Source of the DNA: Alphaproteobacteria bacterium
GTDB taxonomy: Bacteria > Pseudomonadota > Alphaproteobacteria > JAPOUT01 > G958296285
DNA length: 64,000 nucleotides
Assembly (NCBI GenBank): GCA_965204775.1
Contig: CBDBFH010000023.1
Coordinates: 2,007 to 66,006 of the forward strand
Direction: 5' to 3'
Numbering within the stretch: position 1 is the first letter of the stretch; each line of letters begins with the position of its first letter. The notes under the pieces are model-generated. The model did no database searches. It was not told the origin of the DNA and saw only the letters and a program-made list of their open reading frames with translations. This document shows, one piece after another, positions 1 to 9,989 of this stretch. The position numbers were made by a program, and so were the translations under genes.

Positions 1-1601
1 ATCTGGATTTTGCGGCTTTTATCCGGCACCGGGCGTCCTTCGAGATGTGCCCGGACGGGGTTGATGTGCGCGATTTGCCGGAAGCGTGCCTGGAATCGGC
101 GGCCACGCCCAGCGAGCTGTTTTCCAAGCTTCGGCAATGGGGATATGAGACGATGGTGATTCCGCACGGGACGAGTTGGGGGTTTACACGCCTGCCGGTT
201 CGACGCTGGAAAAGCAGTTGGTGGATCACGACGATCCCGGCCTGCAATTTCTGCTGGAGGTGTTTTCGGGCCACGGCAACGCCGAGCAATATCGTGACTG
301 GCGGGCGGTTCGTTTTGGTCCGGACGGCGAGGCCTATTGCCCGGAGCCGCAAAGCAACTATCTGCCGGCCTGCTGGCGGGCGGGGGAGATCATTGCCCAG
401 CGGTGCCGGGACGAGGGTGGCGGCGCGGAGGAATGCGCGTCGCGGGCGGAGCGGGCGCGGTCGTATTATCTGGCTTTGGGGATTTCGGGCTTTCTGACGG
501 TTCCGGGGGCGCGGGCGGAAGACTGGCTGGATGCGGGCCAATGCCAGGACTGCTATTTGCCGGCTTATCATTATCGTCCCGGGGGCTCGGCGCAGTATGC
601 GCTGGCGCTTTCGCATTTTGGCGCGCCTGGGACGCCGCCGCGGCGGTTTCGCTTTGGCCTGATGGCGGCGAGTGACAATCACACGGCGCGTCCGGGGACG
701 GGCTACAAGGAGTTTGCGCGTCACAACATGACGGAGGTTTCCGGCGCGGCGGCGCCGGGGATCGGGGGCCAGGCGTTTGATATCAATGTGGCCCGCCGGG
801 AGGTGAGTGCGGCGCCGCTCGCGCCCGGCGCGGCGCTGGAGGGGATCAGCGCGCTGCGCGCCCTGGAGGTCGAGCGCCTGGGTTCGTTTTTCGTGACCGG
901 GGGTCTGACGGCGGTTCATGCGCCGAGCCGGAGCCGGGAGGCGATCTGGGGGGCGATGAAGCGGCGCGAGGTCTATGGCACGTCGGGCGACCGGATTTTG
1001 CTCTGGTTTGATCTGGAGAACGGCCCGGAGGGCAAGGCGGTGATGGGTTCGCAGGTTGCGATGCGGTCCGCCCCCGCGCTTCACGGTGCGCGCGGCGGGG
1101 GCGTTTGAGCAGAAGCCGGGCTGCTCCGATTACTCCAAGGAGGCTTTGGGGCCGGAGCGTCTGGCCAAATTGTGCCTGGGGGAATGTTACAATCCGTCGG
1201 ACCGGCGCAAGAAGATCACGCATATTGACGTGATTCGGATTCGCCCGCAGATTCGGGAGGGCGAGCCGGTTGGGGAGTTGATCGAGGATCCCTGGAAGCG
1301 CCTGCCCTGCGCGGACGAGGGCGCGGGCTGCGTGGTCAGTTTTTCCGACCCTGAGTTCCGCCGCGACCGGCGCGACACGGTCTATTATGTGCGCGCGGCC
1401 CAGGAGCCGGGCGATGTGGTCAATGCCGGCCAGTTGCGCTGCGAGTATAACGAGCGGGGGGTCTGCATGAAGATCACGCCGTGTTACAGCGACTACCGGA
1501 CGCCGATGACGGATGATTGTCTTGCCTCGGCTCCGGAATATGCGTGGTCGTCGCCGATTTTTGTCGATTATGGGCGTCCGGCGCGGCAGGTGGGACGCTA
1601 G
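1..1601 (+). pseudogene. DUF3604-family protein gene, 5'-truncated by the window edge and interrupted by two frameshifts
   Basis: Track ORFs 45..497, 176..1108 and 1056..1601 read as one DUF3604-like protein. IPHGTSWG|VYTPAGSTLEKQL changes frame in the G5 run at 178-182. GSQVAM|PRFTVRAAGAFEQKPGC...CLGECYNP changes back near the C5 run at 1071-1075. Confidence 0.7.
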
Positions 1602-1628
1602 TGGGGGTTTTGCCTGCGCGGGTTCAGC

Positions 1629-1703
1629 GCGGGTGTAGCTCAGTGGTAGAGCACGAGCTTCCCAAGCTCGGTGTCGAGGGTTCGATTCCCTTCACCCGCT
1701 CCA
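1629..1703 (+). tRNA. tRNA-Gly (anticodon CCC), CCA encoded
   Basis: Hand-folded cloverleaf: acceptor GCGGGTG/CACCCGC, D arm GCTC-AGTGGTA-GAGC, anticodon arm CGAGC-TTCCCAA-GCTCG, T arm GAGGG-TTCGATT-CCCTT, then TCCA. Confidence 0.93.
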
Positions 1704-1747
1704 TTGGCCGTTCGTGCAGAGGAGATTGTTTCTAAAAGGAGATAAAA

Positions 1748-2626
1748 ATGGAAGTTAAGACCCTAACAAACAAGAACATTGCGTTTCTTGTAGAGCACGG
1801 GAAGCAGGATCGCCTGTGTTTTAATGATGAATATCAAAGGGCCGCTATTTGGAAATTAGATCAAAAACAAATGTTTGTCGACTCTATTCTTCGCGGCTAT
1901 TCCATTCCTGCCTTCTATTTTCATTTGAAGGGGTACGATAAACCTGTCAAGGGAGAGGCGCTTTTTCCAAAATATGATGTGATAGATGGGCAGCAAAGAA
2001 TCCGCGCTGTTCAGGAATTTTACAATGACGAATTTAAATTGCTTGATCCAAACAAGGATAGCTTCAGATTTCCCAATTTCGCCAAAGGCAAAAAGTGTCA
2101 TTGGGCAGAAAAGACTTTTTCTCAATTAGAGCCACAATACAAAAGGCAGCTCAAAAACCAGAAAATTATTATATTCGAACTTAGAACGGAAAAAGATAAC
2201 GAAATTAGAGACCTCTTTATACGCCTGCAGGGTGGCACGCCTTTAACTCCACAGGATAAAAGAGATGCTTGGCCGGGCAATTTTACGAAATATATCATAA
2301 CAATTGCTGGAAAGAGCGCTCTCAATAAAAATGAAGGGAGAGGGAAGCCGGGGTGGCCATTTTTCCGGGAAGTTGTTTCTGGAAAAGAAAGCAATAAAAG
2401 GCAATTGGCTGCTCAGATCGCCATGCTCTATTTTCACAGGCTAGAGAGCGGTCAAAAAGATTTTTGCTCAATCGGCTCTGCGAGGATAGACAGTTTTTAT
2501 CATCAGCAAATTGCATTTGATGACGCCAGCGAGGCAGCAGATTCCTTAAGAAAAATTCTGGAAACATTGACAGGAATTTTGGAAAAGGGACAAAGAAGAT
2601 TCAAAGGTACCACGCCATTCATCTAA
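1748..2626 (+). CDS. DUF262 (ParB-like nuclease/NTPase superfamily, GmrSD-type N-terminal module) protein
   Basis: Motifs EYQRAAIWKLDQKQMFVDSILRGYSIP, VIDGQQRI and FIRLQGGTPLTPQDKRDAW. AAGGAG Shine-Dalgarno sequence upstream of the ATG. About 40% G+C in a 65-70% genome. Confidence 0.8.
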   Translation: MEVKTLTNKNIAFLVEHGKQDRLCFNDEYQRAAIWKLDQKQMFVDSILRGYSIPAFYFHLKGYDKPVKGEALFPKYDVIDGQQRIRAVQEFYNDEFKLLDPNKDSFRFPNFAKGKKCHWAEKTFSQLEPQYKRQLKNQKIIIFELRTEKDNEIRDLFIRLQGGTPLTPQDKRDAWPGNFTKYIITIAGKSALNKNEGRGKPGWPFFREVVSGKESNKRQLAAQIAMLYFHRLESGQKDFCSIGSARIDSFYHQQIAFDDASEAADSLRKILETLTGILEKGQRRFKGTTPFI

Positions 2627-2658
2627 CCCTTCTTGTAGATTCGCTTGCAAAGGGATAT

Positions 2659-3456
2659 ATGTCCGGCTGGCAAGACCACCTTCTGGATGCTTTTATAGAA
2701 TTTAATGTACGGTGCCGGAAGGCGGATAAAGCACACAAAGAAAATCGGGAAAGCGAATATAGGGATTATTATTGGAAGTTTCAGACACTCACACGCTCAA
2801 GCAGTGATGAAGGGATAACAATCCAACGGCGGCATGAATTTTTTCTTGACGAAATGCTTAAGCTGCTTTCCCCTCATTTGACAAAGAAAGACCCAAAAAG
2901 AAATTTTGGTATAATAGACTGTGAAATTATTTACTCACGCGATGACAAACTGTGCCAATGGTGCAAAATGCAAGGCAAGCGCCATACGGTTCTTTGGTAT
3001 GAGAAAGAAATCCACCATATAAACCCGCATAGGATGGGGGGCAAAACAGAGATAGACAATGGCGCTTTAATGCATCGAGTTTGTCATCCCAAGGCCTCGC
3101 TGGCTGAAGAGCAATTTAGAGAATGGTGGGAGAATCCAAGAGTAAGACTGCATGGCGAAGCAGAAGACAGCAGTGATTACACCCGGACAAGAAAACCAAT
3201 AAGAGGAAGAGATATAAAGGATTTACCTGATGGGATAAAATGCTCCTTTATCTATAATGACAGGAAATTTCTGGGAAAGATTACTGAAGGCAGAGTCCGC
3301 CTTGAGGGCGTTCCTGGCGAATTTACAAGCTTCTCTGCTGCCTCCAAGGCTGTCACTGGCACTAGCCGAAATGGCTGGCAAGACTGGCAATTATATTTTC
3401 CCGAAGAAGGGAAATGGACATTGGCAGACGATTGGAGAAGAAGTTTCAGCCTGTAA
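2659..3456 (+). CDS. HNH endonuclease with a C-terminal RAMA/DUF4357-like module (possibly the C-terminal half of one DUF262-HNH protein)
   Basis: HNH signature CQWCKMQG...EIHHINPHRMGGKTEIDNGALMHRVCH. C-terminal FTSFSAASKAVTGTSRNGWQDWQL resembles the SxSxAA...NGW..W pattern of DUF4357/RAMA. This frame is open upstream back to 2524. Confidence 0.75.
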   Translation: MSGWQDHLLDAFIEFNVRCRKADKAHKENRESEYRDYYWKFQTLTRSSSDEGITIQRRHEFFLDEMLKLLSPHLTKKDPKRNFGIIDCEIIYSRDDKLCQWCKMQGKRHTVLWYEKEIHHINPHRMGGKTEIDNGALMHRVCHPKASLAEEQFREWWENPRVRLHGEAEDSSDYTRTRKPIRGRDIKDLPDGIKCSFIYNDRKFLGKITEGRVRLEGVPGEFTSFSAASKAVTGTSRNGWQDWQLYFPEEGKWTLADDWRRSFSL

Positions 3457-3609
3457 TCCATAGGTTTCCCACCAGGCTTTTCTATAAAGATTCACCAAAA
3501 GCCGCCACCGGCTGCGGATAGCCAAAGGCGGCGCACAATGCGGCTTTCCCTTTTCCTGATGGGAGAAGATCGAAATAGACGGTTTCTACCTTCCACTCGC
3601 ACCATGTGC

Positions 3610-3679
3610 GGCGTCCGGCGCGGCAGGTGGAACGCTAGCGGGGGTTTTGCCTGCGCGGGTGTAGCTCATCACCCGCTCC
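3610..3679 (+). repeat. Degenerate direct duplicate of the tRNA-Gly locus (upstream flank plus internally deleted tRNA)
   Basis: 3610-3660 matches 1573-1623 (51 bp, 2 mismatches). 3661-3668 equals tRNA nt 1635-1642. 3669-3679 equals tRNA 3' end 1692-1702. Relative to the first copy, 11 bp and 49 bp are missing. Confidence 0.9.
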
Positions 3680-4618
3680 GGCGGCTTTGTGTTCGGCGGC
3701 TTCGATGAGTCTGCGGGCCAGCATGAAATCCATCCGGCGGCGGTAGCGCCCGTCCTTGCGCAGGCCCTTGAAGGGGGTCAGAAAGACATCCTGCGTGTTG
3801 CGCCGGAAGTTTCCGACCGCCCGGTTCAGCCGCCGGATCAAGGCGGGAAGATCGCCAAAGTTCCCGTCAATTCTTGTGATGAATCTCGATGAAACTTTGA
3901 TGGCGTAACCGGAGATTTCCTTCGCGTCACAAAAGCGGATCGAGGGTGCGCTGGTGCCGTCGAAGGAAATGAAGCCAAGTTTCCCCTCCGGCGCATTGAA
4001 GCGAATATCCTTTCTGCCTTTCGGCTGGGGCAAATGCTTCTCCAGCGCGGGCAAATCGCCGATATGGCGGCGGTCATAATGGATTTGCGTTTTATGCCCT
4101 GTTTGGCCGAAGAGGGCGAGGCAGACCGGATTTTCGGTGTCGGCGAACATTACGTCATGGAGCAGAACATAAGATTGCAGACGGGAGCGGAAGAGGCCGC
4201 TTTGCAAGAAGGTGGCCGGGATGATCGCGGCGACATGGCGGCAATTCAGCAGGCAAAGTTCAAGGCAGTGCTTGTAAAGATCATCAAACCGGCTGGACGG
4301 GAAGGCAAGCCCGCGCCTTGTCGCCGAGTTGCGGGCAAGCCAGGGCGGGTTGGTCACGCAGACCTCGAAGCCTTTGGGAAAATCGCGGATCGTGTCTCTT
4401 TCCCTGACCTCCCCTGCCCCCGGCCTGATGTCATAAGAGACGAAATCGCGGCAGAGATTGAGCCTCTGCAACATATAGATCAGATTATTGCTTCCGGCAT
4501 ATGGCTCCAGAATTGTCGCCTTCGGCAGGCCGATCTGCGCCGCCCATTGCCGGAAAGCGGGCAGGGAAAACGGGCTGTTCAAAGTGTAATAGCGGCCGTT
4601 TTGCCTTTTGCAACTCAC
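3635..4618 (-). CDS. N6-adenine DNA methyltransferase (gamma-class motif order)
   Basis: GRYYT near the N-terminus, motif I-like ILEPYAGSNNL, catalytic motif IV VTNPPW. Intermediate G+C (about 45-57% in spot counts). The last 14 codons and the stop lie inside repeat 3610-3679. Confidence 0.75.
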   Translation of the reverse strand: MSCKRQNGRYYTLNSPFSLPAFRQWAAQIGLPKATILEPYAGSNNLIYMLQRLNLCRDFVSYDIRPGAGEVRERDTIRDFPKGFEVCVTNPPWLARNSATRRGLAFPSSRFDDLYKHCLELCLLNCRHVAAIIPATFLQSGLFRSRLQSYVLLHDVMFADTENPVCLALFGQTGHKTQIHYDRRHIGDLPALEKHLPQPKGRKDIRFNAPEGKLGFISFDGTSAPSIRFCDAKEISGYAIKVSSRFITRIDGNFGDLPALIRRLNRAVGNFRRNTQDVFLTPFKGLRKDGRYRRRMDFMLARRLIEAAEHKAAGAGDELHPRRQNPR

Positions 4619-4688
4619 GGAATTTCCCCCGGTCTGCGCAGCGAATCATCCGAGCGCTTTTTTATTTTCTAGCCGGTTCGGGTGTTTT

Positions 4689-5219
4689 TCACCACATCCG
4701 GCTTCCCGGCGCGCCTTTGAAAGGGCCGGTGACCGAAGAGGTAATCCAGCCGCTATAGAAGTTGCCGGGCTGGGGGCGCGCTCTTTCGCCGCCGACGAAG
4801 CAGGCGACGAGTCCCGGATAGAAGGAAATATATCCGGCGATTTGGGCGAAGGCGGCAAGCGGCTCAGGATAAGCGAAGGCGGCATCGGCGGCATGATCCG
4901 CCTTGCCGTCCGCCGGGTCGAGGACGTCGAAATAGGCGGCCTCGCCCTTCCACTCGCAAAAGGTCCGGCGCGCCGACGGGCGCAGGGCGGCGGAGTCGAC
5001 GTCTTCGGGCGGCAGGTAATAGGCCGGCGCAAGGCTGGTCTCAAGGATGCGAAAGGCCCGCGCGCTTTGCCCGACGAGCCGGCCCCCGAATTCGACGCGC
5101 ACCTCCTGGCGGACCTGCTCAAGGCGGGGGGGCCGGGGATAGTCCCAGACGCTTTCCTGCCCCGGCCCGGCGGGGGCGGGGCGGGGCCACAGGTCGGGGC
5201 GTTTCGGGGTGGGAGTCAT
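4689..5219 (-). CDS. DUF427 domain protein
   Basis: ESVWDYPRPPRLE...YYLPPEDV...CEWKGEAAYFDV pattern typical of DUF427. ATGA start/stop overlap with the upstream aldehyde dehydrogenase gene. Confidence 0.75.
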   Translation of the reverse strand: MTPTPKRPDLWPRPAPAGPGQESVWDYPRPPRLEQVRQEVRVEFGGRLVGQSARAFRILETSLAPAYYLPPEDVDSAALRPSARRTFCEWKGEAAYFDVLDPADGKADHAADAAFAYPEPLAAFAQIAGYISFYPGLVACFVGGERARPQPGNFYSGWITSSVTGPFKGAPGSRMW

Positions 5220-6664
5220 GCTTCGGGGGTGCGGATGACCATCATCCGGATTTCGGTCATATCGTCGATGGCGAAGCGCACGCCCTCGCGGCCCAGCCCG
5301 GACTCCTTGACGCCGCCATAGGGCATATTGTCGACCCGGAAGGAGGGGACGTCGCCGATCACCACCCCGCCGACTTCGAGTTGATCCCAGGCGCGATAGG
5401 CTTTGTAAATGTCGCGGGTGAAGAGTCCGGCCTGGAGGCCGAAATCGCTATCGTTGATCTGGGCCAGCGCCTGATCGAAATCAGAGAAGCGCGAGAGGAT
5501 GGCGAGCGGGCCGAAGGCTTCCTTGCGCACAGCGCTGCAATCGGGGGGGGCGTTTTCGATCACCGCCGGCGCCAGCATGGCGCCCTGGCGCGCGCCGCCG
5601 CACAGAAGTTTTGCGCCGCCGGCGCGGGCCTCTTCGATCCATCGCTCCAGCCTTTCCGCCTCGGCCTCGGAGATCATCGGCCCGATAAAGGTCTCTTCGT
5701 CTTTGGGGTCGCCCGCCTTGAGGGCGGCGGCGGCTTTGACGAAGCGTTTGCGGAATTCCTCATAGAGGCTCTCATGGACGAGAATGCGCTGGACGCCGAT
5801 GCAGCTTTGCCCCGACTGATAGAACGCGCCGAAGATGATTCGCTGAACGGCGTCGTTGAGATCGGCATCCGCGTCGACGAGGCAGGCGGCGTTGCCGCCC
5901 AGTTCCAGGACGACTTTTTTGCGGCCTGCGCGCGCCTTCAGCTGCCAGCCGACCGCGGGCGAGCCGGTGAAACTGAGCAGTTTGAGGCGGTCGTCCTCGG
6001 TAAACAGGCGCGCGCCCTGGCGGGTGCAGGGCAGGATGGAAAAGGCCCCTTCCGGCAGATCGGTTTCGGCGAGGATTTCGCCGATGATCAGCGCGCCCAG
6101 CGGGGTGAGGCTGGCGGGCTTGAGGACGAAGGGGCAGCCGCAGGCGATGGCCGGGGCGACCTTGTGGGCGGTCAGATTGAGGGGGAAGTTGAAGGGCGAG
6201 ATGAAGGAGCAGGGTCCGATGGGGACGCGCTTCCATTGACCGCGCCGTCCGCGGGCGCGGGGCGAGATTTCGAGCGGCATGACTTCGCCATAGATTCGCT
6301 CGGCCTCGGCGGCGGCGGTGCGGAAGGTGTCGATCAGGCGCTCGACCTCGCCGCGGGCGTCGCGGATCGGCTTTCCGGCTTCGATGCACAGGGCCAGGGC
6401 GAGTTCGTCGAAGCGCGCCTCGAAGCGGCGCACGCAGTGTTCGAGAGCTTCGCGGCGCTCGAAGGCGGCGAGTTCGGCCATGGGGCGGGCGGCGGCGGCG
6501 GCGGCGGCGATGGCGCGGTCGATGGCCGCCTCATCGGCCAGCGCAACGCGGGCGGCTTCCTTGCCGGAATATTTGTCGCGCACGACGAGATCGCGGTTCG
6601 GGCTTTCCGGCCGGTTGGCGAGGTAATAGGGATAGACGGATTTGAGTCCGGCGGCGGCGGTCAT
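5216..6664 (-). CDS. NAD(P)-dependent aldehyde dehydrogenase
   Basis: 482 aa. ALDH motifs VLELGGNA and GQSCIGVQR (catalytic Cys), plus FTGSPAVG. Confidence 0.88.
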   Translation of the reverse strand: MTAAAGLKSVYPYYLANRPESPNRDLVVRDKYSGKEAARVALADEAAIDRAIAAAAAAARPMAELAAFERREALEHCVRRFEARFDELALALCIEAGKPIRDARGEVERLIDTFRTAAAEAERIYGEVMPLEISPRARGRRGQWKRVPIGPCSFISPFNFPLNLTAHKVAPAIACGCPFVLKPASLTPLGALIIGEILAETDLPEGAFSILPCTRQGARLFTEDDRLKLLSFTGSPAVGWQLKARAGRKKVVLELGGNAACLVDADADLNDAVQRIIFGAFYQSGQSCIGVQRILVHESLYEEFRKRFVKAAAALKAGDPKDEETFIGPMISEAEAERLERWIEEARAGGAKLLCGGARQGAMLAPAVIENAPPDCSAVRKEAFGPLAILSRFSDFDQALAQINDSDFGLQAGLFTRDIYKAYRAWDQLEVGGVVIGDVPSFRVDNMPYGGVKESGLGREGVRFAIDDMTEIRMMVIRTPEA

Positions 6665-6683
6665 AAGGTCCCCCTGGCATCGC

Positions 6684-8336
6684 CTAGATTTGCATGTTGA
6701 TTTCGCCCAGCCGCCGGGTGAGCCGCATATTCTCGCGGTAATCGACCGGGACGACGATCAGGGACGGGCCTTTGTGGGCGAGCGCCTTTTTGAGCGCGGG
6801 GGCCAGATCGCGCGCGCGGGTGACGCGCCGGCCCTGCCAGCCGAAGGCTTTGGCCAGCTGGAGCCAGTCGGGATTGGAGAAGGCGAGATCGGTGTGGCGT
6901 CCGAACTGGTTTTGCTGCTTCCAGGCGATCAGGCCGTATCCGCCGTCCTCCCAGACCATCAAGTTTATGTTGGCGTTGAGGCGGCGGGCGGTTTCCATTT
7001 CCTGGACGTTCATGAGGAAGTCGCCGTCGCCGGCGATTCCAAGAATCTTGCGGTCGGGGAAGACCATATGGGCGGCGATTGCGCCGGGCAGGGGCAGGCC
7101 CATCGAGCAAAAGCCGTTGGGGATCAGGCAGGTATTGGGTTCATGGCAGTGATAGTAGCGGGCGATCCACATTTTATGCGCCCCGACGCCGGACAGGAGA
7201 ATATCGTCCGGCCCCAGCGCCCGGCGCACGTCCCAGAGGATTTTCTGTGGCCGAATCGTGCCGTCGGTGTCGTCGTCCTTGTGGGCTTCGAAATCCTTGA
7301 TCATGTCGCCGCGCAGGCGGGCCTGCAGATCGAGGTCATAATCGGGTGCGCCGTCGGCCTCGAGGCGCTCGTTGAGCATCCACAGGGCGTGGGCGATGTC
7401 GCCGACCACCTCGACCGCCGGATGGTAGCAGGCGTCGATTTCGGCGGGCAGGAAGTCGATATGGATGGTGGGCTTGTCGGCGCCGGGGTTCCATAATTTG
7501 GGGTGATATTCGACGAGGTCATAGCCCAGGGTGATGACGAGGTCGGCGTCGTCGATGGCGCGCGCGACGATGTCTTTTTGTCCGAGGCCGATGGTGAAGA
7601 GGCTGTAGGGGGCGTCCTTGTCGACCGCGCCCTTGCCCATGAAGGTGGACATGACGCCGATTCCGGTTTTTTCGCACAGGATGCGCAGCTGCTTGCTGGC
7701 GCGCTTGCGGATGGTTCCGTTGCCGGCGATGATCACGGGCTTTTTGGCGCTGCGGAGTTTGTCATAGGCGCGGTTGAGAATTTTTTCATCGGGGACGGGG
7801 CGGCGGAAGCGGCGGACGGGGATGGGGGCGGTGGCGGCGTCGGCCTTGGCGATGTCTTCGGGCAATTCGATCAGGGCGGCGCCGGGTTTTTCGACGCGGG
7901 CCAGGCGCACCGCCTTGCGGGTGATTTCGGGGATGGTGTCGGGGTTGATGACGGTGGTCGCCCATTTGGTGACCGGCTCGAACATGTCGACCACGTCCAT
8001 GATCTGGTGGCTTTCCTTGTGCTGGCGCGAGGTTGCGCCCTGTCCGGTGAGGACGAGGATGGGGGCGCGGTCCATATTGGCGTTGGCGACGCCGGTGATC
8101 AGATTGGCGGCGCCGGGGCCCAGGGTACCCAGGCAGGCGGCGGGGGTTCCGGTGAGGCGGCCATAGACTTCGGCCATGAAGGCGGCGCCCTGTTCGTGGC
8201 GGGTGAGGATGAAGCGGATGGTTTTGGATTTTTCCAGCGACATCATGAAGTCGGCGTTTTCCTCTCCGGGGACGCCGAAGACGAGCGTGACGCCCTCTTC
8301 TTCGAGGCAGCGGACAAACAGGTCGGAGGCTTTCAT
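6684..8336 (-). CDS. Thiamine-diphosphate enzyme of the acetolactate synthase family (catabolic AlsS-like)
   Basis: N-terminus MKASDLFVRCLEEEGVTLVFGVPGEEN...RHEQGAAFMAEVYGRLTG and ThDP motif GDGDFLMNVQE. Start set at the internal Met (cat at 8334-8336). Confidence 0.82.
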   Translation of the reverse strand: MKASDLFVRCLEEEGVTLVFGVPGEENADFMMSLEKSKTIRFILTRHEQGAAFMAEVYGRLTGTPAACLGTLGPGAANLITGVANANMDRAPILVLTGQGATSRQHKESHQIMDVVDMFEPVTKWATTVINPDTIPEITRKAVRLARVEKPGAALIELPEDIAKADAATAPIPVRRFRRPVPDEKILNRAYDKLRSAKKPVIIAGNGTIRKRASKQLRILCEKTGIGVMSTFMGKGAVDKDAPYSLFTIGLGQKDIVARAIDDADLVITLGYDLVEYHPKLWNPGADKPTIHIDFLPAEIDACYHPAVEVVGDIAHALWMLNERLEADGAPDYDLDLQARLRGDMIKDFEAHKDDDTDGTIRPQKILWDVRRALGPDDILLSGVGAHKMWIARYYHCHEPNTCLIPNGFCSMGLPLPGAIAAHMVFPDRKILGIAGDGDFLMNVQEMETARRLNANINLMVWEDGGYGLIAWKQQNQFGRHTDLAFSNPDWLQLAKAFGWQGRRVTRARDLAPALKKALAHKGPSLIVVPVDYRENMRLTRRLGEINMQI

Positions 8337-8417
8337 GGCGCGGGTTCCTTTGCGGGCGCAGAGCGGGGCGATCATACATGACGGGCGGGGGGGCGCAAAG
8401 GCCCTGCCCGGCGGGCT

Positions 8418-9989
8418 TCACGCAGCGTTGTCCGGCTGTGAGAGTCCGTGAGGGGTTTTGTCCCAGTGATGGGGGCGGCGGCACAGCTGCCAGAGGGCGC
8501 GCAGGGCGGCGGCCCCCATCAGCAACCAGAAGAGGGGGATGAAAACGGCATGGGGGGCCAGGTCTCTTTTGCCGGCTTGGCTTATGTGGCAGGCGAGGAA
8601 GCTGAAGAAGATGGCGGCGGCGTATCCGATGCCGCCCAGGGCGAGGGCGGCGGGCTTCCAGGAGATGACTCCGGCGAGAGACAGGACGATGATTGCGGGC
8701 CAGAGGGTGCAATGGGCGAGGAGGGAGATGATATAGGCGGGGATCATGCAGTGGAGCCAGAGGACGCCGCGCAGTCCGATGGCCTGGCGCAGGCGGCGGG
8801 GGCGGCGCATGGCGGCGAGCCAGGTCTGGAGCCATCCCTTGATCCAGCGCGAGCGCTGGCGCAGCCAGTTTTGGAGATGTCCGTTGGGCTCTTCGAGGGT
8901 GAGGGAATCGAGCATGGCGCAGCGCAGTCCGGCGCGGGCGATTCGCAGGCCGAGTTCGGCGTCTTCGGTCAGGTTGTATGCGTCCCAGCCGCCAAGTCTG
9001 ATGAGCGCGTCGGTGCGGAAATGGTTGGAGGTTCCGCCGAGCAGGACGGGAACGCCCAGGAGAACGCAAAGCGGCAGGAAGAGGGAGAAGTGGGTTGTGT
9101 ATTCGATGGCGAATTGCCTGGCGAGCCAGTTGTCGCTTTTGGAGCGGAAGAAGTTGAGGGGGGCCTGGAGGCAGACGAGTTCTTCGGGGGCCTGGCTGAA
9201 GGCATTGGCGGCGCGGCGCAATTGTTGGGGGTGGGGCTGGTCTTCGGCGTCATAGATGGTCAGGAGTTCGCCGCGCACGAAGAAGAGGGCGTAGTTGCAC
9301 GCCTTGGCCTTGGTCAGGGGAGGCCGGGAGGGGGTGATGACAACCTCGAAATGCGGCTCAAGCGGGAGTTTTTCGACATGGGCGATCAGCCCGGCGTCGT
9401 GGGCTTCGAGGACGAGTTTGATGTCGAGTTTGTCGGCGGGGTAATCGAGGGCGCGCAGATTGTCGATCAGTTTGTCGACGACGGCGGTTTCGCCGAGGAG
9501 GGGGGCGAGAATGGTGTAGACGGGGAGGTTATGGGTTTCGAGGGGTGTCTGGGGGAGAGGGGCGCAGGCGGCGGCGGGCGAGGTGAAGAGAAAGCGGGAG
9601 AGCATTCCATAGCGCAGGGCGACGGAGGCAAGGCACAGGAAGCCGAGGAAACTTCCGGAGTATGTGACAAAGGCATGAGGAGCGGGGACGGCGCACAAGA
9701 TCAGGCCGAGGCCGGCGGCGAGCAGGACGCAGAGCTGGCCGGGGGTGAAGAGGCGTTGCGCCGAGTCGGCGGGATCCAGTCCGGGGCGGCCATTGGCGGC
9801 CAGTTCGGCGAGCAGCGCATCATCGCCGCGCCGCGTGATTCGAGGCGGGCGCGGCGCGGGACTCCGGGCGGCGGGAGGAGCGGGAAAACTGATTCGCTTG
9901 GGGGCGAGGCCGGTCCGGCTTTGCGAAGCCTGCTGTTCCGGTGCAATGGGGCTTGCCTCGGACAAGCGCAGCGTGCCCCCCTTGGTCAC
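8418..9989 (-). CDS. Membrane-bound family 2 glycosyltransferase
   Basis: GT2 motifs YDAEDQP, TEDAELGLR and QRSRWIKGW, flanked by predicted TM helices. The exact start is uncertain. Confidence 0.75.
   Translation of the reverse strand: MTKGGTLRLSEASPIAPEQQASQSRTGLAPKRISFPAPPAARSPAPRPPRITRRGDDALLAELAANGRPGLDPADSAQRLFTPGQLCVLLAAGLGLILCAVPAPHAFVTYSGSFLGFLCLASVALRYGMLSRFLFTSPAAACAPLPQTPLETHNLPVYTILAPLLGETAVVDKLIDNLRALDYPADKLDIKLVLEAHDAGLIAHVEKLPLEPHFEVVITPSRPPLTKAKACNYALFFVRGELLTIYDAEDQPHPQQLRRAANAFSQAPEELVCLQAPLNFFRSKSDNWLARQFAIEYTTHFSLFLPLCVLLGVPVLLGGTSNHFRTDALIRLGGWDAYNLTEDAELGLRIARAGLRCAMLDSLTLEEPNGHLQNWLRQRSRWIKGWLQTWLAAMRRPRRLRQAIGLRGVLWLHCMIPAYIISLLAHCTLWPAIIVLSLAGVISWKPAALALGGIGYAAAIFFSFLACHISQAGKRDLAPHAVFIPLFWLLMGAAALRALWQLCRRPHHWDKTPHGLSQPDNAA

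Follow-up and report, generated by a model that had tools for sequence, protein, structure and literature searches.

Two alternative defence-type cassettes in tandem beside a tRNA-Gly(CCC) gene of an uncultured alphaproteobacterium: a probable case of additive recombination

How does a block of low-G+C DNA come to lie directly 3' of a tRNA gene, and to end in a rearranged copy of that same tRNA locus, when no recombinase gene accompanies it? The question is raised by the left end of a 64,000-nucleotide stretch of DNA from Alphaproteobacteria bacterium (assembly GCA_965204775.1, contig CBDBFH010000023.1, positions 2,007 to 66,006 of the forward strand; hereafter the window), which belongs to a 1.71-Mb metagenome-assembled genome (MAG) of 29 contigs. 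Here, a tRNA-Gly(CCC) gene is followed by two cassettes, namely X, a single gene with DUF262/GmrSD_N, HNH and DUF4357 regions, and M, a putative N6-adenine DNA methyltransferase gene, and between the two lies a remnant of the right-flank gene fused to a copy of the left flank. Taken as a whole, the evidence makes it probable that, in this family of small-genome Alphaproteobacteria, the DNA from tRNA-Gly(CCC) to DUF427 is a hotspot without an integrase, in which single defence-type cassettes are swapped by homologous recombination of the flanks, and that X and M were stacked in this window by an additive recombination event, the product of which then decayed.

Anatomy of the interval between tRNA-Gly(CCC) and DUF427

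From left to right, the locus can be written A-T-X-D' | A'-T'-M-DUF427. Its left-flank core gene is a DUF3604 gene, the 3' part of which occupies 1056-1601 on the + strand (an open reading frame, ORF, with the Pfam DUF3604 match upstream) and which shares 62-68% amino acid identity with the DUF3604 genes preceding tRNA-Gly(CCC) in relatives. The last 27 nt of this gene and its TAG stop fall within repeat A (1573-1623, direct-repeat family D3), which continues into the spacer before the tRNA. The intact tRNA-Gly(CCC), T, follows at 1629-1703 on the + strand (ARAGORN; Rfam RF00005, 71.5 bits) and is identical to the sister-genus tRNA at 75 of 75 aligned positions. The right-flank core gene is an intact DUF427 gene at 4689-5219 on the - strand, identified by Pfam (DUF427, 5e-30) and by its synteny in the related genomes G002, G003, L106 and L107.

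A sequence-only reading of this DNA had described a drop in G+C directly 3' of the tRNA, and a scan in 200-nt windows bears this out, with values of 0.60-0.73 up to 1700, 0.36-0.47 at 1701-3500 and 0.64-0.66 at 3501-3800. Codon usage gives the same picture, as the G+C content at third codon positions (GC3) is 0.41-0.42 in the low-GC gene, 0.71 in M and 0.79-0.84 in the neighbouring genes. That reading had also seen neither integrase nor transposase, and indeed no recombinase, integrase or transposase ORF is present in the ORF list for 1-8400 of the window. It overlooked that the low-GC DNA amounts to a single gene, X (1748-3456, + strand), which a frameshift splits into ORFs 1748-2626 and 2659-3456, that a fragment of DUF427 lies at 3460-3613, that the repeat appears to start at a microhomology to DUF427, and that the methyltransferase ORF reads through the repeat.

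The second copy of A that had been reported, 51 bp long with 2 mismatches, was recovered at 3610-3660 as A', which repeats the DUF3604 end, the TAG and the spacer and is identical to A at 49 of 51 positions. Our repeat search pairs 1573-1628 with 3610-3665, of which 1573-1623 and 3610-3660 form the 51-nt core; the mismatches are 1594 G/A and 1602 T/C, and the longest exact match is 21 nt. A' is the sole second copy of A in the 1.71-Mb genome (BLAST, E = 1.4e-17). It runs into T' (3655-3679, + strand), a dead tRNA-Gly copy in which tRNA nt 1-14 are fused to nt 64-74 and which neither ARAGORN nor Rfam calls as a tRNA. Both deletions noted earlier in this copy are real: 3661-3668 matches tRNA positions 1635-1642 and 3669-3679 matches 1692-1702, with zero mismatches, so that 49 bp of the tRNA interior are missing from T', and an 11-bp deletion of A'-T' relative to A-T lies between two copies of GCGCGGGT, with the loss of one GCGCGGGT and of spacer. 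The A-T duplication, originally ~131 bp, thus stands on both sides of X-D'.

Immediately to the left of A' lies D' (3460-3613, - strand), a decayed DUF427 fragment made up of a middle part and a C-terminal remnant, recognized through repeats, Pfam, alignment and tblastn. Its DNA matches positions 4849-4970, within the intact DUF427 gene, at 74-76% identity (repeat families D6 and D15), its translation includes TWCEWKVETVYFDLL and AFGYPQPVAAF, and a 50-aa piece matches Pfam DUF427 with E = 6e-4, slightly below the curated cut-off. Roughly 160 bp have been lost from its interior, and it has a stop codon. In alignment, D' occupies the very place where intact DUF427 adjoins X in G002 and L107. A further DUF427 paralogue that could have served as its intragenomic source was sought by tblastn in the genome, and none was found.

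Homology to D' extends up to 3613 and homology to A' begins at 3610, with GGCG (3610-3613) common to both; moreover, GTCCGGCGCG is common to the native DUF427 gene and to A at the corresponding places. Thus, the D'|A' joint appears to sit at a microhomology of 4-10 nt, a placement that is approximate. We read the repeat as the novel joint of an additive event that duplicated the flank, and not as a pre-existing duplicated locus, and the 70-bp "scrambled tRNA copy" as the scar of that event. Simple capture of foreign DNA between duplicated tRNA loci, as had been proposed, does not fit a second copy that is fused to a DUF427 fragment and separates two alternative cassettes.

The two halves of the scar are unequal in age or origin. 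A' and T' differ from A and T at 2 of 70 positions, and D' differs from intact DUF427 at 21 of 86 (Fisher p = 1.6e-4); with a stricter 44-nt alignment of D' there are still 9 differences (p = 0.003). Over 27 codons, D' and the corresponding part of DUF427, D, show 8 synonymous and 8 non-synonymous differences, and this number of synonymous changes, together with the gap in divergence between A' and D', suggests that D' diverged in part while the gene was functional, in another lineage. GC3 over these codons is 17/27 in D' vs 21/27 in D, and within intact DUF427 it is 0.6-0.8 in the 3' part and 0.83-0.93 in the 5' part. Relatives whose DUF427 genes are as far apart as 76% identity have spacers that agree at no more than 60-72%, whereas A' is 96% identical to A, and A' is therefore taken for a copy from the same lineage. 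From these comparisons, we read X-D' as derived from another, lower-GC lineage and A' as derived from the window's own.

On the other side of the scar, the M ORF (3635-4618, - strand, 327 aa) has run into the repeat. The natural end of the protein (...LIEAA) lies at ~3695 and its stop codon is lost, so that 19 extra codons (3638-3694) lead through T' and A' as far as a palindromic CTAG; its homologues (n = 1732, length 309-316 aa) all end in ...LARRFINAA, 19 codons earlier. The palindrome itself (3635-3638, in A') is the copied DUF3604 TAG on the + strand and the stop of the M read-through on the - strand.

The slot in relatives

The family is represented by four other species only, none of them from the genus of the window, and the signs of flank recombination described here come from the sister genus, the window's own genus being without comparison genomes. 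Across G001, G002, G003, L106 and L107, the slot holds differing cassettes or is empty. In G001, the DUF3604 gene and tRNA-Gly(CCC) are followed at once by the aldehyde dehydrogenase (ALDH) gene, the slot being empty and DUF427 absent. G002 carries an intact X of 561 aa, with a G+C of 0.35-0.39 vs 0.55 for the genome, placed 55 nt from the tRNA and 32 nt from the stop of DUF427, which is on the - strand. G003 has a third cassette type, a pentapeptide-repeat gene between tRNA and DUF427; its product (L023 1047-1910) has 287 aa and carries a membrane-like segment towards its N terminus and pentapeptide repeats (Pfam 7e-14) in its C-terminal part. Among the called genes and listed ORFs of these five slots there is no integrase, and no tRNA-derived repeats surround the cassettes of G002 and G003.

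A direct view of exchange comes from L106 and L107, two conspecific metagenome genomes from one sample, L106 being a circular contig of 1.85 Mb. In L106 the order is tRNA-Gly, a 220-aa-type ORF (orf220), methyltransferase and DUF427, and in L107 it is tRNA-Gly, a DUF262-HNH gene 57% identical to X of the window, and DUF427. On the left, the two genomes share 95.7% identity as far as the tRNA 3' end, and on the right, from the DUF427 stop, they share 97.8%, so that the cassettes alone differ. In L107, some 300 nt of AT-rich DNA (4054-4361, G+C 0.39) lie between the DUF262-HNH gene and DUF427; this DNA is missing in G002, and it contains a 46-aa ORF without a family match. Flanks are mosaic as well: G002 and G003 are 90-98% identical over DUF427 and the first half of ALDH and 77-89% thereafter (a step from 95% to ~80%), which indicates a recombination breakpoint within ALDH. 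Replacement by homologous recombination, the other origin that the sequence-only reading had put forward, hence stands as a description of the conspecific exchange, which is what flank recombination is expected to give, and does not stand as plain replacement in the window, where both alleles were kept.

A wider metagenome search with the C-terminal piece of DUF3604 returned 80 loci at 49-66% identity, none with a downstream tRNA or synteny. An X paralogue in G004 (38% identical) lies elsewhere, without a nearby tRNA, and was set aside as uninformative for the slot.

Additive recombination and its alternatives

The retention of both alleles, together with the fusion of a right-flank fragment to a left-flank fragment, points to an additive event and not to a double-crossover replacement. 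In the sequence of events that we consider probable, M and its partner gene would be the original residents, with a GC3 near that of the host, and the incoming piece would have comprised tRNA-Gly, X and the 3' part of DUF427 from a lower-GC relative with the X allele. One joint may have formed in the tRNA region, where 75 bp of perfect cross-genus homology would be the only good homology available. The DUF427 side, at ~76% identity, would have been a poor substrate, so that this end may have been joined illegitimately, through a GC-rich microhomology of 4-10 nt between the incoming DUF427 fragment and the 3' end of the recipient DUF3604 gene, 56 bp upstream of the tRNA, with duplication of ~131 bp of the target. 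A circularised fragment could have entered by a single crossover of Campbell type; alternatively, a template switch, or a process resembling homology-facilitated illegitimate recombination (HFIR), could have taken place between sister copies. Decay would then have removed 49 bp from T', 11 bp between the GCGCGGGT copies of A'-T' and ~160 bp from D', which also acquired its stop, while M would have lost its partner and its stop codon and X would have gained a frameshift. As any crossover of A with A' would henceforth remove the sole intact tRNA-Gly(CCC), the stack might have been stabilised by its own scar.

Several points weigh against this account. Genomes of the same genus or species are lacking (the best X is 57% and the best M 71% identical), and the genomes seen include no ancestor with a single allele and no donor, so that the breakpoint is placed only approximately. 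A duplication calls either for a circular intermediate bearing an A-T segment like that of the recipient or for a pair of sister copies, and classical HFIR usually deletes recipient DNA instead of duplicating it, so that the window departs here from HFIR proper. A circular donor that supplied a 96% identical A should not have supplied a 76% identical DUF427, unless its flank was already mosaic. In addition, X is diverged from its counterparts in G002 and L107 (55-58% amino acid identity) about as much as DUF427 is (58%), and a long residence of X in the family is thus compatible with the identities. Lastly, the frameshifts in X and DUF3604 could be sequencing errors.

Two other versions can be put aside. 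Plain tandem duplication as the sole event is ruled out by the unequal divergence of the scar (2/70 in A'/T' vs 21/86 in D', p = 1.6e-4), and a circular donor from a distant species that brought its own A is ruled out by the spacers, which are 60-72% identical there vs 96% in A'.

We regard a history of two steps in situ as unlikely. A unit reaching from A to the middle of DUF427 in an A-T-X-DUF427 locus would have been tandem-duplicated via microhomology, and X and the 3' part of DUF427 in the second copy would then have been replaced by M and a DUF427 3' part from a diverged relative through ordinary double homologous recombination, with one crossover in the tRNA and the other in either DUF427 or ALDH, which makes D' the native sequence and M the newcomer. 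The final structure would be identical, the greater divergence of D/D' than of A/A' would be accounted for, and so would the GC3 of the DUF427 3' part, which falls somewhat below that of the 5' part and may be set beside the 0.71 of M; allelic replacement of this kind is, furthermore, directly observed between L106 and L107. However, two rare events are required, GC3 points to X (0.41) and not to M (0.71) as the recent arrival, and the lower GC3 of D' than of D is more in keeping with decay or with a lower-GC donor than with a native allele.

An assembly artefact, in which the assembler concatenated strain haplotypes with the X allele and the M allele, seems to us quite improbable. The genome is a MAG in 29 contigs, strains with alternative alleles do co-occur in a related sample (L106 and L107), and the homopolymer frameshifts of DUF3604 hint at error-prone reads. 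Such an artefact would, however, fuse intact sequences at a shared k-mer, whereas the joint shares only 4-10 nt, A and A' match exactly over no more than 21 nt, and the joined pieces are already decayed (D' by ~160 bp and a stop, T' by 49 bp, A' by 11 bp and two substitutions).

A decayed site-specific island, or a relic resembling a cis-mobilizable element (CIME), in which a tyrosine or serine recombinase, supplied in trans or no longer present, would have inserted X and the right repeat would be a degraded attR, is very improbable: tRNA 3' ends are classical att sites and the variable DNA begins exactly at one, but the repeat holds 56 bp upstream of the tRNA as well as the tRNA 5' end, both foreign to att duplication, and abuts the DUF427 fragment, no recombinase is found in 1-8400 or in the five related slots, X of G002 is without att-like repeats, and the homology of L107 to L106 stops sharply at the 3' end of the tRNA and at the stop codon of DUF427 (with no repeat scan made in L107). 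The sequence-only reading had likewise judged canonical att-site integration a poor fit, and the integrase-free slots, the extent of the repeat upstream of the tRNA and the clean conspecific exchange all uphold that judgement.

Additive recombination might be a general, recombinase-free route by which defence islands grow: a chromosomal fragment with a cassette and pieces of both flanks would enter through the perfectly conserved tRNA gene, even across genera whose other DNA is only ~65-70% identical, with the decayed tRNA copy locking the stack in place; this generalisation is a tentative one and rather doubtful. In the sister species, X, of modification-dependent restriction type, and M, a putative adenine methylase, exclude each other as alleles, and here we also speculate that a conflict between the two in one cell may have selected for the frameshift in X.

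Related systems and the two cassettes

The principle of the hotspot was known before, as were displacement arrays and insertion by HFIR or by a Campbell-type event, and the present locus combines them at a tRNA-anchored defence slot. It resembles the hotspots of flank recombination free of mobile genetic elements outlined in PMC10250203, in that fixed core genes flank variable defence-type content without an integrase, the flanks are mosaic and the conspecific swap is clean; it is unlike them in retaining two alleles in tandem with a flank scar where replacement is the usual outcome. In an HFIR assay in E. coli, the majority of products arose when a circularised molecule integrated by a single crossover, with duplication of 109-950 bp of the homologous (lacZ) locus, and HFIR joints had 3-10 bp of microhomology (PMC3240628); HFIR is also treated by de Vries & Wackernagel 2002 and Prudhomme et al. 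2002, as cited in PMC3240628 and PMC5361080. The window shares with such events one joint at a homology, in the tRNA region, a foreign insert of ~1.9 kb, and a target duplicated on both sides of the insert, comparable to the lacZ duplications; its other joint appears to lie at a short microhomology. Unlike them, the event is natural, old and deduced from sequence, and its anchor would be very short (75-131 bp).

HFIR has also been proposed for the additive "sequential displacement" arrays of type VI secretion system effector-immunity modules in Vibrio cholerae (PMC5361080), where, as in the Rhs and contact-dependent inhibition (CDI) orphan modules cited there, a module is added at a conserved anchor and the old module is kept downstream with a repeated piece of the upstream conserved sequence. 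Both features recur here. The anchor, however, is a tRNA gene and a gene end instead of the constant part of a toxin, and the window has two modules only, of restriction and modification type. With integrase-borne tRNA islands and CIMEs the window has in common a block directly 3' of the tRNA, a foreign composition and a partial tRNA copy at the far end; it differs from them in its lack of a recombinase, in the make-up of the repeat (51 nt from upstream of the tRNA, followed by its nt 1-14 and its final 11 nt), in the fusion of that repeat to a DUF427 fragment and in the repeat-free cassette of G002. The locus may thus serve as a dissected natural case of defence cassettes that move and accumulate beside a tRNA gene without an integrase, in streamlined uncultured Alphaproteobacteria, with ordinary exchange by homologous recombination of the flanks and an occasional additive event that leaves a fusion of right flank to left flank. 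Knowledge of this type of scar could keep such loci from being classed as degraded integrase islands, and it singles out the tRNA gene as an anchor of cross-genus homology. In addition, the locus draws attention to two under-described modules, namely the DUF262-HNH-DUF4357 single gene and the widespread pair of a methyltransferase and a 220-aa ORF, for which there is no family annotation.

Cassette X, with a G+C of 0.41-0.44, is a putative type-IV-restriction-like, that is, modification-dependent gene. Its first ORF matches Pfam GmrSD_N (4.6e-20, residues 24-174) and shows a DGQQR motif in translation (VIDGQQRIRAV), and its second ORF matches HNH (PF01844, 1.2e-8) and has a DUF4357-like tail (2.9e-6); the best PADLOC match is NsnA (2.3e-26). 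The break between the halves is a one-base frame change near 2605-2612, outside any long homopolymer, and the halves are colinear with intact orthologues of 561-568 aa in the same slot of relatives. This single-gene system has more than 1400 homologues. Like the DUF262 nucleases GmrSD, BrxU and SspE, X combines an N-terminal DUF262/GmrSD_N domain with DGQQR and a C-terminal His-Me-type nuclease in a single gene, yet its C-terminal domain consists of HNH (PF01844) and an extra DUF4357-like tail in place of DUF1524, which is absent from its Pfam matches, and it is frameshifted.

Cassette M has a G+C of 0.58. The LEPYAGSNN and TNPPW motifs are invariant across its homologues, so that an S-adenosylmethionine (SAM)-binding motif and an (N/D)PP(Y/W/F) motif are present. 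Profile matches were weak (Pfam Eco57I, 0.0091; PADLOC MTase_II, 7.6e-4, for the L106 orthologue), sequence and profile searches against PDB gave nothing, and the AlphaFold model is poor, with a predicted local distance difference test (pLDDT) score of 51. The orthologue in the same slot of L106 is 71% identical. In L106 (8001-9603), L109 (5001-6582), L110 (5001-6582) and L111 (5001-6624), which represent three unrelated genomic contexts, the methyltransferase is followed and overlapped (~11 nt) by a partner ORF of 220-232 aa; the partners are 51-66% identical among themselves and have no Pfam or PADLOC match. From this conserved pairing, the methyltransferase and the 220-232-aa ORF probably constitute an uncharacterised family of type II restriction-modification (R-M) systems, with the partner as a putative nuclease, possibly the type II endonuclease. 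No remnant of a partner ORF was found in the window or in the rest of the genome. M thus has the SAM-binding and TNPPW motifs of type II R-M methyltransferases without an adjacent cognate endonuclease gene, and, if the reading as a pair holds, it would be the solitary survivor of an R-M pair. In L110, an IS1595-like fragment precedes the pair, and behind it (6579-9022) come methyltransferase genes of the MT-A70 and N6_N4 types together with a small HNH gene, so that the region has the look of a small defence patch of mobile or phage origin.

To the right of DUF427 in the window lie ALDH (5216-6664) and a gene for an AlsS-like thiamine diphosphate (ThDP) enzyme (6684-8375). Homologues of ALDH are widespread across phyla, and a contig scan with it re-found only G003. 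A promoter and terminator scan of 1400-4800 gave sites no more numerous than in shuffled sequence. The DUF427 genes of G002 and G003 (L022 2993-3052; L023 2362-2421) contain three tandem 15-bp units encoding (V/I)SDEP, a variable in-frame insertion that DUF427 of the window does not have. The DUF3604 gene (1-1601) shows two frame changes, near a G5 run (178-182) and near C5/G5 runs (~1071-1095), which may reflect either homopolymer sequencing error or a pseudogene; in relatives, each orthologue is one uninterrupted ORF of ~720-760 aa, and the one copy in the window genome compares with four tandem paralogues in L106.

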